NCBI RefSeq assembly: GCF_988243305.1
Contig: NZ_OZ547136.1
Length of the DNA stretch: 64,000 nt
Strand: one strand, 5' to 3'
The position numbers and the translations under genes were made by a program. Below the pieces are notes generated by a model. The model ran no database searches. It had not been told where the DNA came from and saw only the letters and a list, made by a program, of their open reading frames with translations. This document shows positions 33,169 to 38,263 of the stretch, in pieces; the stretch's first letter is position 1, and every line of letters begins with the position of its first letter.

Positions 33169-34227
33169 GTGCGGGTATTACTTCGATCTGTTCTGGTACC
33201 GGAACTCGGTCTGGTTATCGTTAAGCCAGGCCGTGAATCAATGTCAGCATTCCATAACGGCAGAATACTGGTGGAGCCGGAACCAAAAAGCATGCGTAAT
33301 CTGCCGTCCGGGGTCGTTCCTGCCGCTCGCCAGCCGCTGGTGGAAGACAAAACATTGCTGCCGTTTTTCAGTAACGCACGGGTGATTCGTGCTGCTGGTG
33401 GTGCTGGTGCATTGTCTGACTGGCTGTTGCGCCATATTAAATCCTGCCAGTGGCCACACGGCGATTATCATCACAGCGAAACCGTCATTCACCGTTATGG
33501 TACCGGCGCAATGGTGTTGTGCTGGCACTGCGACAACCAGCTGCGTGACCAGACATCCGAATCACTCGGGCAACTTGCTCATCAAAACCTGTCAGCATGG
33601 ATGATTGACGTCATCGGTCACGCAATAAGCGGTACGCAGGAGCGTGAATTATCTCTGGCTGAATTATCCTGGTGGGCGGTCCGCAATCAGGTGGCGGACG
33701 CGCTACCGGAAGCGGTATTACGTCGTTCGCTGGGGTTGCGTGCGGAAAAAATTCGCTCTGTGTACAGTGAAAGCGACATCATACCGGGAGAGCAGACCGC
33801 CACCAGCATACTGAAGCAGCGCACAAAAAATATTGCGTTACTGCCTCACGTCCACCAGCAACAGAACCCACCACAGGAAAAGACGGTGGTCAGCATTGCC
33901 GTTGATCCGGAGTCACCGGCTCAGTATCTCCAGCGCCAGAAATCACAACGGGAAGAGATGCCTGTATACACGCGCTGGGTAAAAACGCAGAAATGCATGA
34001 CGTGTGGCAATCAGGCAGATGATCCGCATCACATCATTGGTCATGGACTGGGAGGGATGGGAACAAAGGCTGATGATTTGTTTGTTATTCCGTTATGCCG
34101 TAAATGCCGTAACGAACTACATGCCGGAGTAAAAGATTTTGAAGAGAAACACGGCAGTCAGCTGTTGTTGCTGATTCGTTTTTTAATGCACGCGAGAAAT
34201 TCGGGTGTTCTGAAGTGGAAAGCATAA
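33169..34227 (+). CDS. DUF968/YdfU-like protein with C-terminal HNH-like Cys/His motif
   Basis: 352-aa ORF; C-terminus CMTCGNQADDPHHIIGH...CRKCRNELH. Confidence 0.6.
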   Translation: MRVLLRSVLVPELGLVIVKPGRESMSAFHNGRILVEPEPKSMRNLPSGVVPAARQPLVEDKTLLPFFSNARVIRAAGGAGALSDWLLRHIKSCQWPHGDYHHSETVIHRYGTGAMVLCWHCDNQLRDQTSESLGQLAHQNLSAWMIDVIGHAISGTQERELSLAELSWWAVRNQVADALPEAVLRRSLGLRAEKIRSVYSESDIIPGEQTATSILKQRTKNIALLPHVHQQQNPPQEKTVVSIAVDPESPAQYLQRQKSQREEMPVYTRWVKTQKCMTCGNQADDPHHIIGHGLGGMGTKADDLFVIPLCRKCRNELHAGVKDFEEKHGSQLLLLIRFLMHARNSGVLKWKA

Positions 34228-34608
34228 ATGAACGAGCGCATAGAATTTGTTTTACCTTACCCGCCGACGGTGAACACTTACTGGCGACGCCGTGGCAGCA
34301 CATATTTTATCTCGGAGGAGGGAAAGCGTTATCGCCGGGCTGTGGCGCTTATTGTTCGCCAGCAGCGGCTGAAATTAAGCCTGTCCGGAAGGCTGGCGAT
34401 AAAGGTGATTGCAGAGCCACCGGATAAGCGTCGTCGCGACCTGGACAATATCCTGAAAGCACCGCTGGATGCGCTGACGCATGCGGGAGTGTTAATGGAC
34501 GATGAGCAGTTTGATGAAATCAATATCGTTCGTGGTCAGCCAGTATCTGGTGGACGTATGGGGGTGAAGATTTACCCCATAATGCATGAAGAGCAGGTCA
34601 AAAAATGA
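34228..34608 (+). CDS. rusA: Holliday-junction resolvase RusA
   Basis: 126-aa ORF; LPYPPTVNTYWRRRG...DKRRRDLDNILKAPLDALTHAGVLMDDEQ matches RusA as recalled. Confidence 0.85.
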   Translation: MNERIEFVLPYPPTVNTYWRRRGSTYFISEEGKRYRRAVALIVRQQRLKLSLSGRLAIKVIAEPPDKRRRDLDNILKAPLDALTHAGVLMDDEQFDEINIVRGQPVSGGRMGVKIYPIMHEEQVKK

Positions 34609-35426
34609 AACTGGAAGATTTACCGAAATACTACTCCCCAAAATCCCCTGGCCTGACCGATGCATCGGCCTCAACGTCAAAAGATGCGCTGAGTATCACT
34701 GATGTGATGGCCGCGCAGGGCATGACACAGAATCGGGCTGAGATGGGGTTTTCTGCGTTCCTGGGGAAAATGGGCATCAGTATGAATGACAGGGCGCGGG
34801 CAACAGAATTACTGGCAGATTATGCACTCAGTCGGTGCGATCGTGTGGCGGCGTTGAGAAAACTTCCGGCAGAAATAAAACCGGTAGTGATGCGCATTAT
34901 GGCTTCGTATGCGTTTGAAGATTATGCCCGTAGCGCGGCGAGCAAAAAACAGTGCCCCTGCTGTCACGGAAAAAAATTTATTGAAAGCGAGGTTTTTACA
35001 AACAAGATCCAGTATCCGGATGGTAAGCCACCAGTGTGGGCAAAGTGCACAAAAGGCGTGTATCCGTCTTACTGGGAAGAATGGAAAAAAGTCAGGGAGG
35101 TGGTAAAAGTTGCCTGTCCGGAGTGTGGCGGAAAGGGTGAGGTTTCCACCGCCTGTAAGGATTGCCGTGGGCGTGGTGTCGCCATTCATCGTGAAGAGTC
35201 GGTAAAACGTGGTATGCCTGTTATCAGAGATTGCCAGCGTTGTGGTGGTCGTGGCTGTGAAAGGCTGCCATCAACGGAGGCATTTAATGCCATATGCAAA
35301 GTGACGAGTGCTATCACGCTTGATACGTGGAAAAAATCAGTGAAACGCTTTTACGATACGTTGGTGGTTCGGTTTGACATTGAAGAGGCATGGGCGGAGC
35401 GGCAGTTAAAGAGGGTAACGCGATAG
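34605..35426 (+). CDS. late-gene antiterminator Q
   Basis: 273-aa ORF with multiple CxxC zinc-finger pairs, followed immediately by a PR'-like promoter and terminator. Confidence 0.75.
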   Translation: MKLEDLPKYYSPKSPGLTDASASTSKDALSITDVMAAQGMTQNRAEMGFSAFLGKMGISMNDRARATELLADYALSRCDRVAALRKLPAEIKPVVMRIMASYAFEDYARSAASKKQCPCCHGKKFIESEVFTNKIQYPDGKPPVWAKCTKGVYPSYWEEWKKVREVVKVACPECGGKGEVSTACKDCRGRGVAIHREESVKRGMPVIRDCQRCGGRGCERLPSTEAFNAICKVTSAITLDTWKKSVKRFYDTLVVRFDIEEAWAERQLKRVTR

Positions 35427-35431
35427 TGTTG

Positions 35432-35459
35432 TTGATTTTTCCCGAATCTGTGGTAAATT
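35432..35459 (+). promoter_or_regulatory. late promoter PR' candidate
   Basis: -35 TTGATT (35432-37), 16-bp spacer, -10 TAAATT (35454-59), directly 3' of Q. Confidence 0.55.
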
Positions 35460-35505
35460 TGCTCTAACGATGGGCGTTTTATGCCTGACGTTAGAAGATT
35501 TTTTA

Positions 35506-35530
35506 CACCCCGCCACCTGGCGGGTTTTTT
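35506..35530 (+). terminator. tR'-like terminator
   Basis: CCCGCCA-CCT-GGCGGG hairpin followed by TTTTTT. Confidence 0.6.
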
Positions 35531-35652
35531 ATGACTGAAATCGCGTCAGTACAGTAAACGCGCTGGTGGCGGTGAATACCTGTCTTTCAGCTTGCTGGCT
35601 TTTTCGACAAGAGTTATTGGTGTGTCACGTTAACCGGAAAAGGGAAAAAGAC

Positions 35653-35850
35653 ATGCTAAAACAGCAGGATATGACAGAAACCGCCAGAGTGGTGTTTAAT
35701 GAATTAAGCGTTACCGAACCGGCGACAGTCGGGGAGATAGCGCAGAATACTTACCTTTCACGCGAACGCTGCCAGTTAATACTGACCCAGCTGGTTATGG
35801 CGGGTCTGGCAGACTATCAGTTCGGTTGTTACAGACGCCTTCCGCAGTGA
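35653..35850 (+). CDS. hypothetical small winged-helix-like protein
   Basis: 65 aa from ATG 35653 with AAAGGGAAAAAG RBS region; hairpin plus T-run follows at ~35836-35860. Confidence 0.45.
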   Translation: MLKQQDMTETARVVFNELSVTEPATVGEIAQNTYLSRERCQLILTQLVMAGLADYQFGCYRRLPQ

Positions 35851-35877
35851 AGGCTTTTTTATTTGTGGTAAATGGGC

Positions 35878-35908
35878 GGCTGGTGGGTGTTAGGGGCACC
35901 CACCAGCC
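35878..35908. other. perfect 12-bp inverted repeat
   Basis: GGCTGGTGGGTG-TTAGGGG-CACCCACCAGCC, preceded by GTGGTAAAT which repeats the PR' -10 context. Confidence 0.4.
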
Positions 35909-36000
35909 ATCTGCTCATGCGTTGGGTTCACAAGCAAACCTCAGGCCCACTGCTTTGCGCAAAAGCAGAATGAGCCTATCAGAGACAGGCTTAATGATCC

Positions 36001-37050
36001 ATGCTTAACACTGTAAAAATATCCAGTTGTGAGTTAATCAACGTCGACTGCCTGGAATTTATCCGGTCGTTACCCGAAAATTCTGTTGACTTGATAGTCA
36101 CGGACCCGCCGTACTTTAAAGTGAAGCCTGAGGGCTGGGATAACCAGTGGAAGGGCGACGATGATTACCTGAAGTGGCTGGACCAGTGTCTGGCGCAGTT
36201 CTGGCGGGTGCTGAAACCTGTCGGAAGTCTTTACCTGTTCTGTGGTCATCGCCTGGCATCTGATATCGAAATCATGATGCGTGAACGCTTCAGTGTGCTG
36301 AACCATATTATCTGGGCGAAGCCGTCCGGACGCTGGAACGGATGCAACAAGGAAAGCCTGCGGGCGTATTTCCCCGCCACAGAGCGCATTCTGTTCGCGG
36401 AACATTATCAGGGGCCGTATCGTCCGAAAGATGCCGGGTATGCGGCGAAGGGCAGTGCACTGAAACAGCATGTGATGGCCCCGCTGATTTCTTACTTTCG
36501 TGATGCGCGCGTGGCCCTGGGGATAACGGCAAAACAGATTGCAGATGCCACAGGAAAGAAAAACATGGTGTCGCACTGGTTCAGTGCCAGTCAGTGGCAG
36601 CTACCGAACGAAAGCGATTATCTGAAATTACAGTCGCTGTTTGCCCGGGTGGCAGAAGAGAAACATCAGCGCGGTGAACTGGAAAAGCCCCACCACCAGC
36701 TGGTGGATACGTATACGTCACTGAACCGGCAGTATGTGGAGCTGCAGAGTGAATATAAGCATCTGCGGCGGTATTTTGGTGTGACGGCGCAGGTGCCGTA
36801 CACGGATGTGTGGACACATAAACCGGTGCAGTTCTATCCCGGGAAACATCCGTGCGAAAAACCGGCAGAAATGCTGCAGCAGATAATCAGCGCAAGCAGT
36901 CGTCCGGGTGACCTGGTTGCAGATTTTTTTATGGGCTCAGGTTCAACGGTAAAAGCTGCACTGGCGCTCGGGCGTCGTGCGATTGGCGTTGAACTGGAGA
37001 CCGGACGTTTTGAGCAGACAGTCAGGGAAGTTCAGGATTTAATCGTTTGA
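36001..37050 (+). CDS. DNA N6-adenine (or N4-cytosine) methyltransferase, beta class
   Basis: 349-aa ORF; DPPY motif (IVTDPPYF) N-terminal, SAM-binding FFMGSGST C-terminal. Confidence 0.85.
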   Translation: MLNTVKISSCELINVDCLEFIRSLPENSVDLIVTDPPYFKVKPEGWDNQWKGDDDYLKWLDQCLAQFWRVLKPVGSLYLFCGHRLASDIEIMMRERFSVLNHIIWAKPSGRWNGCNKESLRAYFPATERILFAEHYQGPYRPKDAGYAAKGSALKQHVMAPLISYFRDARVALGITAKQIADATGKKNMVSHWFSASQWQLPNESDYLKLQSLFARVAEEKHQRGELEKPHHQLVDTYTSLNRQYVELQSEYKHLRRYFGVTAQVPYTDVWTHKPVQFYPGKHPCEKPAEMLQQIISASSRPGDLVADFFMGSGSTVKAALALGRRAIGVELETGRFEQTVREVQDLIV

Positions 37051-37099
37051 AACGGATGAGATTGCAGAATTAATTACGCACCATTATTATTCTGCTTCC

Positions 37100-37175
37100 G
37101 GCCCTTTAGCTCAGTGGTGAGAGCGAGCGACTCATAATCGCCAGGTCGCTGGTTCAAATCCAGCAAGGGCCATCA
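37100..37175 (+). tRNA. tRNA with CAU anticodon (Ile2/Met type, ileZ-like)
   Basis: cloverleaf: acceptor GGCCCTT/AAGGGCC, D-arm GCTCAGTGGTGAGAGC, anticodon loop CTCATAA, T-arm GGTTCAAATCC. Confidence 0.8.
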
Positions 37176-37275
37176 TCACAAACCGCCATTAGCTTATCAG
37201 GAAGAGCAGACGACACGATAACAGGGTTGTTGGTGCGGGGGCGGGTCCCCGATGGCGGTCCATTATCGGTATTCA

Positions 37276-37352
37276 GCGTTGTTAGCTCAGCCGGACAGAG
37301 CAATTGCCTTCTAAGCAATCGGTCACTGGTTCGAATCCAGTACAGCGCGCCA
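37276..37352 (+). tRNA. tRNA-Arg (UCU anticodon)
   Basis: acceptor GCGTTGT/ACAGCGC, anticodon stem ATTGC/GCAAT with loop CTTCTAA, T-arm GGTTCGAATCC, 3' CCA encoded. Confidence 0.85.
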
Positions 37353-37489
37353 TATTCATTCTTCCAGATTCCTTTCGGCAGAGCCTTATACTGAAATATA
37401 CCTGGCTCAGGATATTGTTGAAAATATTATATGTTTGTCAAAAATAAAAGTTCTGTTAAGTGTTGATTGAGTGTTTGTTATACGGTCTA

Positions 37490-37816
37490 ATGGTTTTTTC
37501 AGCATTAAATATTTATCATTCATATGGTGTGGGTAGAGTGAATATTGATGAGGCGTCGGGGTGTTTCATCCTTAGGCAGCGTATTGATATAGTCAATGCA
37601 GAACGAGCAAAGGCCTTCAGCCGTTTGACAGTTTTGTTCTGTACTCCTGATCGTCTTTCGGGAAGAGACGTTATTATTCTGAATAGTGATGCTATACAGA
37701 GGGTTTGCGATGAGTTCATGGTGGCTAATTCAGAATTATTTGCTCTTGTTCAGGAGTACAACAGAATAGCCAGGACCTGTGGTATGGATGAACTTCGGAT
37801 TACTCATCTGGGGTAG
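37490..37816 (+). CDS. hypothetical protein in AT-rich cargo locus
   Basis: 108 aa from ATG 37490; no clear Shine-Dalgarno. Confidence 0.3.
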   Translation: MVFSALNIYHSYGVGRVNIDEASGCFILRQRIDIVNAERAKAFSRLTVLFCTPDRLSGRDVIILNSDAIQRVCDEFMVANSELFALVQEYNRIARTCGMDELRITHLG

Positions 37817-38263
37817 ATACATATCTGGATTATCACCGGTTACGGTAAAAAGTGATTGCTTACTGTTTTTGTGAATGGCATTGCAGCAGCCGGATAATGT
37901 CAGTGCTGGCTGACGGTGTGCTGGTGGCGGGTGTGGTGGTTGCTGCTTTCCCGTTGCTGAAAAAGAAAACGCCAGACTGTTAGCCGGGTATCAGTTAGCG
38001 GGAGAAATTTTTAAATACTTCACAATTCAGGCGGTTGACTGTTGTCTGGTTTGCGGGGAGTTTGTTAAAAGAAACTGGCATGGTGAATCCCCCTGTGCGG
38101 AGGGGCAATCAGCGAGTAGGTATATGGGATAATCGCGGATTCAGGTGCTGGTACTGAATTCACCGGGAGGCACCCGGCACCATGCAATGGCACATAGCGC
38201 CACTCTCCAGCCCCTCTCCGGAGGGGCTGTTTATATTGATTTTGTCAGATGTGAGTAAACTCC

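Follow-up and report, generated by a model that had tools for sequence, protein, structure and literature searches.

A conserved and apparently undescribed 5' leader RNA that probably controls the late DNA methylase gene of a Stx-phage-like Escherichia coli prophage

The com-mom operon of phage Mu and the Com-controlled methylase genes of Mu-like prophages (hin1523, hia5 and nma1821) encode harmful, promiscuous DNA-modification enzymes that are made late. In Mu, a small regulator gene just upstream of the enzyme gene and an RNA structure near the enzyme start provide an additional, post-transcriptional control, and Com is believed to exert translational control over comparable promiscuous methylases in Mu-like prophages, as it does over Mu mom (PMC3299994). 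M.EcoGII, another enzyme of this kind, is non-specific, deleterious when expressed constitutively and not expressed in lysogens (PMC5778455), and its homologues are likewise inactive in O111 Shiga toxin-producing E. coli (STEC) (PMC6602927). The locus analysed in this study lies in a 64,000-nt stretch (hereafter the window) of contig NZ_OZ547136.1 from the RefSeq assembly GCF_988243305.1, in which a perfect 12-bp inverted repeat precedes a DNA methylase gene. The reading that we favour, with a probability of about 0.6, is that this stem is the main hairpin of a conserved and apparently undescribed cis-acting 5' leader RNA of ~130 nt that controls the methylase gene, a harmful late gene.

The host element is a lambdoid, Stx (Shiga toxin)-phage-like E. 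coli prophage, of which an identical copy is present in E. coli B19374. The genes are arranged in the order DUF968, RusA, Q, a 65-amino-acid (aa) open reading frame (ORF), a 349-aa DNA methylase, two tRNAs, a DUF3927 gene and IraM. The methylase gene (36001-37050, + strand) encodes a beta-class DNA N6-adenine methyltransferase (Pfam PF01555, 2e-44) and is ~95% identical to that of phage 1720a-02, both for the nucleotides across the gene start and for the protein (94.5%). The 1720a-02 enzyme has been called very similar to M.EcoGII, which is also 349 aa long (PMC5778455), and the window methylase is therefore a probable member of the M.EcoGI/GII family. A silent and toxic methylase, together with the Com control of related methylases, provides a context for tight control of this gene. 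On direct reading, its start codon is not preceded by a Shine-Dalgarno sequence.

The arms of the inverted repeat are located at 35878-35889 and 35897-35908 and are separated by a 7-nt loop. The original prediction, made from the letters of the window, had described a perfect 12-bp stem without a T-run; this description is correct, and the stem is far beyond chance, as seven such 12-bp inverted repeats were found in the window and none in 50 shuffles. As RNA, the hairpin region (35855-35930) folds with a predicted energy of -33.7 kcal/mol (z = -3.7). The stem was rejected as an intrinsic terminator, since it is followed by AUCUGCUCAUG instead of a U-run and is omitted by the terminator scan.

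The stem is one helix of a structured leader at 35869-36000 (+ strand), which is supported by a covariance model and by covariation. The helices were defined from RNAalifold on an alignment of 40 lambdoid leaders and by inspection. The 12-bp stem with its loop constitutes helix P1 (35878-35908), in which 10 of the 12 pairs show compensatory changes across phages. Immediately upstream lies strand S (AUGGGC, 35872-35877), which has two potential partners. In the RNAalifold consensus the stem is extended downward by the pairing of S with X1 (GCUCAU, 35913-35918). The other partner, X2 (GCCCA, 35945-35949), is the 3' strand of the closing helix P0, with 99.5% of the alignment cells paired and two covarying pairs. 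Helix P2 (UCUGCU, 35910-35915, with AGCAAA, 35933-35938) contains one pair that covaries as U-A, C-G and A-U, and it overlaps X1, so that a switch between S:X1 and S:X2 is possible. All 7 pairs of helix P3 (CUGCUUU, 35950-35956, with AAAGCAG, 35962-35968) show compensatory changes. Helix P4 (AGCCU, 35973-35977, with AGGCU, 35987-35991), which encloses an A-rich loop, is the weakest, with 70% of cells paired. All of these elements are on the + strand.

Relatives of the locus were gathered by distant BLAST and by tblastn with the methylase, and further lambdoid loci were fetched with a left-arm pattern. A scan of genome contigs with TGGGCGGCTGGTGGGTG returned mostly chance matches in GC-rich genomes, and ~9 of the loci were true homologues. 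The arrangement of a small ORF, ~140 nt and the methylase gene was found in SfV, in mEp460 and in phages of Klebsiella, Citrobacter, Providencia, Morganella and Hafnia. The arrangement of a late promoter, a terminator, ~140 nt and the methylase gene was found in the N15-like phages N15, phiKO2, PY54, P840, PhiR46_1, NAR688 and MStein. When conservation of the stem in related phages was examined, a check that the original prediction had proposed, the stem was found to be kept. The nucleotide identity to the window for leader and methylase, respectively, was 85 vs 78% in SfV, 85 vs 74% in a Klebsiella phage and 75 vs 70% in a Providencia phage; the non-coding leader is at least as conserved as the methylase gene. 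In the tblastn set, which is unbiased with respect to the leader, the left arm was intact down to 63% methylase identity (Providencia) and was changed in Hafnia (GGCTGGGTTGTG).

The covariance model, which was trained on lambdoid sequences only, gave a single + strand match in the window (35859-36003, 138 bits). Full-length matches ending exactly at the methylase ATG were obtained in the Hafnia phage (88 bits), in P840, PY54, phiKO2 and NAR688 (50-60 bits) and in N15, MStein and PhiR46_1 (32-39 bits). In Vibrio ST2-1pr, VHML and Aeromonas phiARM81ld, matches of 27-36 bits were located just upstream of the methylase gene or of a com-methylase operon. The position of the leader is constant: among the lambdoid and N15-like copies, the 36 whose start codon can be recognised have a match that ends at the ATG of the methylase gene.

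In the N15-like, Vibrio and Aeromonas phages the sequence of P1 is unrelated to that of the window and its pairing is kept. The P1 arms are GCGGGACGAG and CUCAUCCCGC in N15, GCAGGACAAG and CUUGUCCUGC in PhiR46_1 (two compensatory pairs apart from N15), CUGCAGCAUG and CAUGCCACAG in phiKO2, CUGCAACCACG and CGUGGUCACAG in PY54, and CUGUUAAGAG and CUCUUAACAG in Vibrio ST2-1pr. The S:X2 helix also covaries, with A...U in phiKO2 and PY54, G...C in N15 and PhiR46_1, and CGUGGC/GCCACG in the Aeromonas phage. In an alignment of 43 sequences, 87.6% of the cells were able to pair, compared with 32-46% when the partners were slid by 1-3 columns. Changes on both sides were present in 29 of 35 pairs, and the observed values were reached by none of 500 shuffles. 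P1 was also recovered by alignment-free folding of single sequences in all eight representatives.

In methylase-less phages the leader is truncated at or just after P1, which links it to the methylase and not to the small ORF. Of 5,426 complete E. coli genomes, 2,487 (~46%) matched the 641-nt region containing the leader in some part, and 1,211 matched it over at least 80%. A search of Rfam 15 at permissive thresholds (to E = 10) identified no family at the leader, with generic hairpin matches only and nothing credible on the + strand; the best match was P26 on the - strand, at 24 bits for a gathering score of 36. RefSeq annotates nothing at the leader, and a literature search for a small RNA (sRNA) or leader at this position found none. 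The leader is thus apparently undescribed, being absent from both Rfam and the RefSeq annotation.

Three further observations concern the leader and its surroundings. A GATC (Dam) site at 35996-35999, immediately 5' of the methylase ATG, was invariant in 40/40 of the aligned lambdoid leaders. It could pair with GGUCA in the P2 loop to give a possible pseudoknot (85% of cells paired, weak covariation). A hairpin at 36010-36033, in the first ~30 nt of the methylase coding sequence (ACUGUAAAAAU...ACAGU), was predicted in the lambdoid, phiKO2 and PY54 sequences that were folded, and a coding-start hairpin of this type was not predicted in N15 or VHML. The AUG within S opens a reading frame (MGGWWV...), which was rejected as a coding element because its length is not conserved: on reading of the sequences, the peptide would have 33 aa in the window and SfV, 16 in Providencia, 7 in Klebsiella and 5 in phiKO2. 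The invariant bases in this would-be leader peptide include synonymous positions.

Several points weigh against control by a leader RNA. The comparisons show the fold, its conservation and its position, but the leader transcript, its ends and its regulatory effect are all inferred, and the + strand is assigned from operon context, as the wobble counts (55 G.U vs 70 A.C cells) do not fix the strand. The assignment of the methylase to the M.EcoGII family is made from length and from similarity via phage 1720a-02. Pairs were counted on an alignment that had been fitted to the structure of the model, so that pairing is somewhat inflated, and the invariance of the left arm in lambdoid phages is partly an effect of ascertainment, many of these loci having been fetched by the left-arm pattern. 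The S:X1 pairing, with 93.7% of cells paired, shows little covariation. Finally, masking of the start site by the leader was unsupported by partition-function folding: the mean unpaired probability of the start region (-18 to +12) was 0.47 for native leaders and 0.50 for shuffled ones, and was lower for the native leader in 26 of 38 sequences. The result is neutral as to an effect of the leader on expression, and the absence of systematic masking argues against simple occlusion of the start codon.

On the leader reading, the element would lie in the Q-antiterminated late transcript, immediately upstream of the methylase gene. The fold would begin with an A-rich lead-in. S would pair either with X1, lengthening P1 to a hairpin of ~18 bp, or with X2, in which case it would close a three-way junction that contains P1 and P2. 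The hairpins P3 and P4 would follow, just before the start codon. The leader would act in cis and post-transcriptionally, setting the amount or the timing of methylase made from late transcripts, and its output might be exerted through the efficiency of translation, through processing and stability of the mRNA, or through a protein-dependent switch. The choice between S:X1 and S:X2 and the winged-helix protein encoded by the 65-aa ORF (PHROG family phrog_331) may take part. Two terminators (tR' and a hairpin at 35837-35864, both described below) already precede the methylase gene, which has to be kept off in lysogens, and the leader would add a post-transcriptional layer. A role for the winged-helix protein in reading the sequence of P1 is unlikely, as the N15 and phiKO2 proteins are 73% identical and their P1 sequences are unrelated; the lack of P1 conservation between phages with similar phrog_331 recognition helices argues against sequence-specific reading of the stem.

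A more far-reaching version can be put forward only tentatively. It holds that this 'promiscuous-methylase leader' represents an undescribed and widespread family of phage RNAs, in which a conformational switch between S:X1 and S:X2 gates the methylase to cells committed to lysis. Its setting might depend on the phrog_331 protein, which is inherited together with the leader, or on how the kinetics of RNA polymerase differ with and without modification by Q. If this were true, the leader would be a control module that is functionally parallel to Mu com-mom and built from different parts, shared by lambdoid, N15-like, Vibrio and Aeromonas phages, and a switch module would be present in nearly half of complete E. 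coli genomes.

The likeness of the locus to Mu com-mom and to the Com-controlled methylase genes lies in the presumed type of enzyme (harmful, promiscuous and made late), in the small gene just upstream, and in the RNA structure near the enzyme start, with the control here being presumed. The Vibrio and Aeromonas relatives of the operon also carry a com-like gene. In Aeromonas phiARM81ld, an annotated com-like zinc-finger gene lies between the leader and the methylase gene, and in Vibrio ST2-1pr an unannotated 45-aa ORF (801-938) with a Com-like zinc finger (CPHC...CSRC) is found between the leader match and the methylase gene. The differences are that the small protein of the window has no CxxC...CxxC motif, and so no Com zinc finger, and is a winged helix instead; that the leader lies upstream of com where com exists, and is hence a separate element; and that no masking of the start codon is predicted here. 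The cIII and N-leader mRNAs of lambda, in which translation is set by alternative structures and by RNase III sites, are comparable as phage 5' leaders with long hairpins and mutually exclusive pairings (S:X1 and S:X2 here, P2 overlapping X1), but there is no sequence relationship and the gene controlled here would be a methylase gene. The C protein/C-box arrangement of restriction-modification systems is similar in that a small helix-turn-helix protein is encoded beside a methyltransferase gene with an inverted repeat between them. C proteins are Xre-type helix-turn-helix proteins and bind upstream of their own gene. The repeat in the window, on the other hand, belongs to a covarying fold with multiple helices, and its sequence is not conserved along with the protein.

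The transcript in which the leader is expected to lie would be controlled by Q. The Q antiterminator gene (34605-35426, + strand) encodes 273 aa (Pfam PF03589 Antiterm, 2e-49) and aligned end to end with lambda Q by BLASTP (31% identity, E = 1e-37), except for a Cys-rich insertion of ~66 aa. This insertion brings extra CxxC pairs, with a sub-threshold match to the DnaJ-type CXXCXGXG motif, and Pfam splits the protein into two Antiterm stretches. As was originally predicted, a sigma-70 promoter is located directly after Q (35432-35459, + strand), with a -35 element TTGATT (35432-35437), a 16-nt spacer and a -10 element TAAATT (35454-35459), which is extended by a TG at 35451-35452 (TGgTAAATT). 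It is homologous to lambda PR': on comparison with the lambda sequence, TAAATTTGCTCTAACGATGGG of the window and TAAATTTGACTCAACGATGGG of lambda were identical at 17 of 21 bases, from the -10 element through +9 and including AACGATGGG. The -10 hexamer is that of lambda PR', and AACGATGGG starts 6 nt further on. A generic promoter scan does not score the promoter, its hexamers matching at just 8 of 12 positions; it was accepted as real on the basis of its homology to lambda PR' and not from the scan. The inferred transcription start and the AACGATGGG element occupy 35466-35474 (+ strand), which is identical to positions +1 to +9 of lambda PR'. In lambda, the -10-like element AACGAT, which is covered by the match, induces the sigma-70-dependent pause at which Q loads, and 35466-35474 is taken to be a putative pause-inducing element by transfer from lambda biology.

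The terminator that had been noticed after this promoter is also present. It is the intrinsic terminator tR' (35509-35530, + strand), detected by the terminator scan, with a 6-bp all-GC stem (hairpin 35509-35524) followed by T6. Transcription from PR' to tR' would yield a short RNA of ~66 nt, with a predicted fold of -28 kcal/mol (z = -4.7). Short terminated RNAs of this type are the lambda 6S RNA and StxS, of which the window RNA would be the counterpart (PMC7547250). The region 35432-35530 is a lambda-type late control unit, of an already known kind, and it confirms a textbook arrangement. By analogy with lambda and Stx phages, PR' is presumably constitutive, Q would load onto RNA polymerase at the pause element, and in a lysogen tR' would halt transcription after the ~66-nt RNA. 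The likeness to the lambda and StxS units consists of a Q homologue, the same -10 element, the same AACGATGGG at +1 and an intrinsic terminator shortly downstream, and on this basis a short terminated RNA is expected in lysogens (PMC7547250). The unit differs from that of lambda in having a spacer of 16 nt instead of 17, a terminated RNA of ~66 nt instead of 194 nt, a Q protein with the 66-aa Cys-rich insertion, and a different sequence in the -35 to -10 interval. Because of this last difference, the Q-binding element is presumably different as well.

The 65-aa ORF after tR' (35653-35850, + strand) had been described as winged-helix-like, and the structure prediction agrees: the AF2 model has a pLDDT of 92, and the closest folds are the winged-helix domains of MarR/IclR regulators and of O-methyltransferases. 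The protein belongs to PHROG 331 (1.4e-37), as does N15 gp51 (5.7e-28), a homologue that is encoded just upstream of the N15 late promoter. The lambda orf-64, which follows lambda PR', was considered as a relative and rejected as unrelated. In the lambdoid and N15-like enterobacterial phages examined, the phrog_331 gene is immediately upstream of the leader unit, and this placement means that the trio of phrog_331 gene, leader and methylase gene is conserved across otherwise different types of enterobacterial phage. The terminator-like hairpin that had been attributed to the small ORF was recovered by the terminator scan over the ORF stop codon (35837-35864, + strand), with the hairpin at 35837-35854 followed by the T-run TTTTTTATTT. 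In a survey of 80 viral contigs encoding the same 65-aa protein, conservation set in at the tR' stem and continued downstream, but the units in front of it were of at least six unrelated Q/PR'/tR' types, and BLAST matches present the same break in homology at the terminator.

Among the other explanations of the stem, the nearest in kind is that it is a processing or stability hairpin for RNase III, which would be a specific version of the leader. P1 with S:X1 would form an interrupted double-stranded RNA of ~18 bp that is cut in the late transcript, separating the methylase mRNA from the upstream RNA and so setting its stability or translation. RNase III acts in this manner at the lambda N-leader, at sib and at the T7 R sites. 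The minimum-free-energy structures predicted for the window, SfV, Providencia and phiKO2 join S:X1 and P1 into one long hairpin, and the free variation of the P1 sequence with its pairing kept is as expected for an element recognised by shape. The duplex, however, is just ~15-16 bp in N15-like phages, and the competing P0 (S:X2) has slightly better covariation support, and we consider this explanation unlikely. It is more doubtful still that the inverted repeat is a DNA operator, that is, a palindromic site at which a dimer of the phrog_331 protein blocks or tunes transcription into the methylase gene. The predicted fold of the protein is of the MarR/IclR-like DNA-binding type, the protein is always encoded beside the element in the enterobacterial phages examined, and the wobble statistics do not prove RNA. 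An operator would nevertheless leave unexplained the covariation of four further helices (P0, P2, P3 and P4), the arms vary in length from 10 to 13 nt and the loops from ~5 to 7 nt with occasional bulges, and the similar recognition helices of N15 and phiKO2 gp51 face unrelated P1 sequences. The similar counts of G.U and A.C cells mean that the covariation would also fit a folded RNA on the minus strand, antisense over the 5' end of the methylase gene, and the sub-threshold Rfam P26 match (24 vs 36 bits) is on that strand. This has very little probability in our estimation, as no promoter- or terminator-like signals were found in the region scan or in the inspected reverse complement of the consensus, and the element is always in the sense orientation within the late operon.

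The original prediction had drawn attention to the recurrence of GTGGTAAAT, from the PR' -10 region, immediately before the stem, and had suggested a second Q-utilisation site, a pause element or a protein-binding site. GTGGTAAAT does occur at both 35450-35458 and 35865-35873 (+ strand), the second copy consisting of the A-rich lead-in of the leader and the first bases of S, and the match extends to 12 of 13 bases. Such a repeat is near chance, as 0.76 exact 9-mer repeats and 0.12 repeats of 12/13 are expected in 641 nt. At the second site, the GTGGTAAAT form was found behind a non-lambda-type PR' in 15 loci, a lambda-type PR' was followed by GTGGTAAT in 4 loci, and other lambdoid phages carry TGTGAAAAT or TGTGGAAAT at this position. 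A Q-utilisation site or Q-binding element is expected to be specific to the type of Q. The site is very unlikely to be a second Q site, because the same element is present behind at least six Q/PR' types and also in N15-like phages, where no Q gene adjoins the late promoter in the stretches fetched. The same holds for a second promoter or a sigma-70-dependent pause at TGTGGTAAATGGGCGG. In favour of these, TGnGAAAAT or TGnGGTAAAT followed by GGG resembles an extended -10 element with a discriminator and is conserved among the lambdoid copies, and GGGCGGCTGGTG fits, on inspection, the G-10/Y-1/G+1 pattern of an elemental pause. The second '-10' hexamer, TAAATG, has a G at -7 where the critical T is needed and has no -35 element (the best candidate matches 3/6), and the promoter scan finds no site at 35865-35890. 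The motif is independent of Q type, the (A/G)UGGGC bases covary across phages with downstream partners as an RNA helix, so that in distant phages the 'T' and its neighbours change as part of P0 (CGUGGC/GCCACG, for example), and a constitutive start would be hard to reconcile with a methylase that is toxic and stays silent in lysogens. A pause or protein-binding site is conceivable for the lambdoid subgroup, but the conservation can be explained without either. Where GTGGTAAAT recurs, at the 5' edge of the RNA fold, the likeness is one of chance or of lineage; it is specific to a lineage and not linked to the type of Q or PR'. What stands of the original prediction is the PR'/tR' unit, the winged helix, the terminator, and the stem with its conservation; the second Q site is not retained, and the stem is best taken as an RNA helix in a larger leader. 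It is equally hard to credit, with hardly any probability left to it, that the primary function of the stem is that of a recombination junction, in which convergent Chi sites protect DNA from RecBCD and promote module exchange. The Chi octamer GCTGGTGG is present in both P1 arms (35879-35886, +; 35900-35907, -), the interval 33336-37927 contains 11 Chi sites, lambdoid copies retain the + strand Chi, homology breaks were detected by BLAST at 35870 and 35890, and the left arm is the point at which the methylase-less variant is joined. Most E. coli relatives, however, have lost the - strand Chi, their right arm being CACCTGCCAGCC or similar, with pairing kept via wobble; the hairpin is retained in the absence of Chi in Hafnia and in every N15-like, Vibrio and Aeromonas copy; and both the pairing and the other helices are left unexplained. 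Chi is best regarded as an addition to the RNA element in one lineage and not as its defining feature.

The Chi content of the region is high in its own right. The window contains 17 Chi octamers, compared with 2.4 expected from shuffles, all within 18673-41923; 12 of the 17 are on the + strand and 11 fall in the ~4.6 kb around Q, the methylase gene and the tRNAs. Chi occurs on average about once per 4.6 kb in E. coli, and the local density is thus ~10 times this average, as in a Chi hotspot. The difference from such a hotspot is the absence of the octamer from the homologous hairpin of Hafnia, N15-like, Vibrio and Aeromonas phages, as described above. If cos is situated to the right of this region, the + strand would be the orientation in which Chi is active on RecBCD that enters at a cos end. 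A Chi octamer just downstream of tR' (35562-35569, + strand) was kept in 27 of 34 distinct module variants with varying flanks, which suggests selection for Chi itself. A second back-to-back Chi pair, in the palindrome CCACCAGCTGGTGG, is located at 36693-36706, inside the methylase coding sequence.

In the methylase-less relatives, GGCTGGTGGGTG is followed without a break by TGGTGGTTG...CTTTCCCGTTGCTGAAAAA, from the body of the DUF3927 gene, which in the window (37852-37983) has its own Chi at 37920. The block formed by the methylase gene, the tRNAs and an ORF at 37460-37816 is bounded by short Chi-containing direct repeats (35879-35889 and 37920-37940). The presence of these repeats at both ends makes the methylase-tRNA cargo look like an insertion or deletion by short-homology recombination.

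Methylases of the M.EcoGI/GII family are in wide use in biotechnology. Should the leader control the methylase, part of the silence of the enzyme in lysogens would be explained, and the leader would be a new RNA element in phage anti-restriction biology, possibly a new RNA-protein pair. Its range takes in Stx-like prophages of E. coli, linear plasmid prophages of the N15 type, and phages of Vibrio and Aeromonas. The Chi content and the mosaic junction at the stem may help to explain the movement of methylase-tRNA cargo between Stx-type phages.

A number of smaller features were noted in the same region. The bases (A/G)TGCCTGAAAA after the tR' T-run (35525-35545 in the window) are common to many lambdoid modules and to N15-like phages (~1062-1085 there), where they directly precede strand S. 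This shared sequence points to a transfer of the phrog_331 gene to this position or away from it. In the N15-like copies, GCCUGAAAAUGGGC can form a boxB-like hairpin, and none is visible in lambdoid copies. The sequence GGCGGCTGGTG was considered as an RfaH ops element (GGCGGTAGnnTG) and rejected on inspection, as only the first five bases are alike. The phage tRNAs are located at 37100-37172 and 37276-37352; one has the anticodon CAT (Met according to ARAGORN, Ile according to RefSeq) and the other is an Arg tRNA (TCT), and the pair is reminiscent of the ileZ/argN/argO-type cargo that Stx phages carry. Downstream of the DUF3927 gene and near IraM, a strong Rfam match to the sRNA STnc100 (132 bits, E = 8e-30) was found at 38049-38238 on the + strand.

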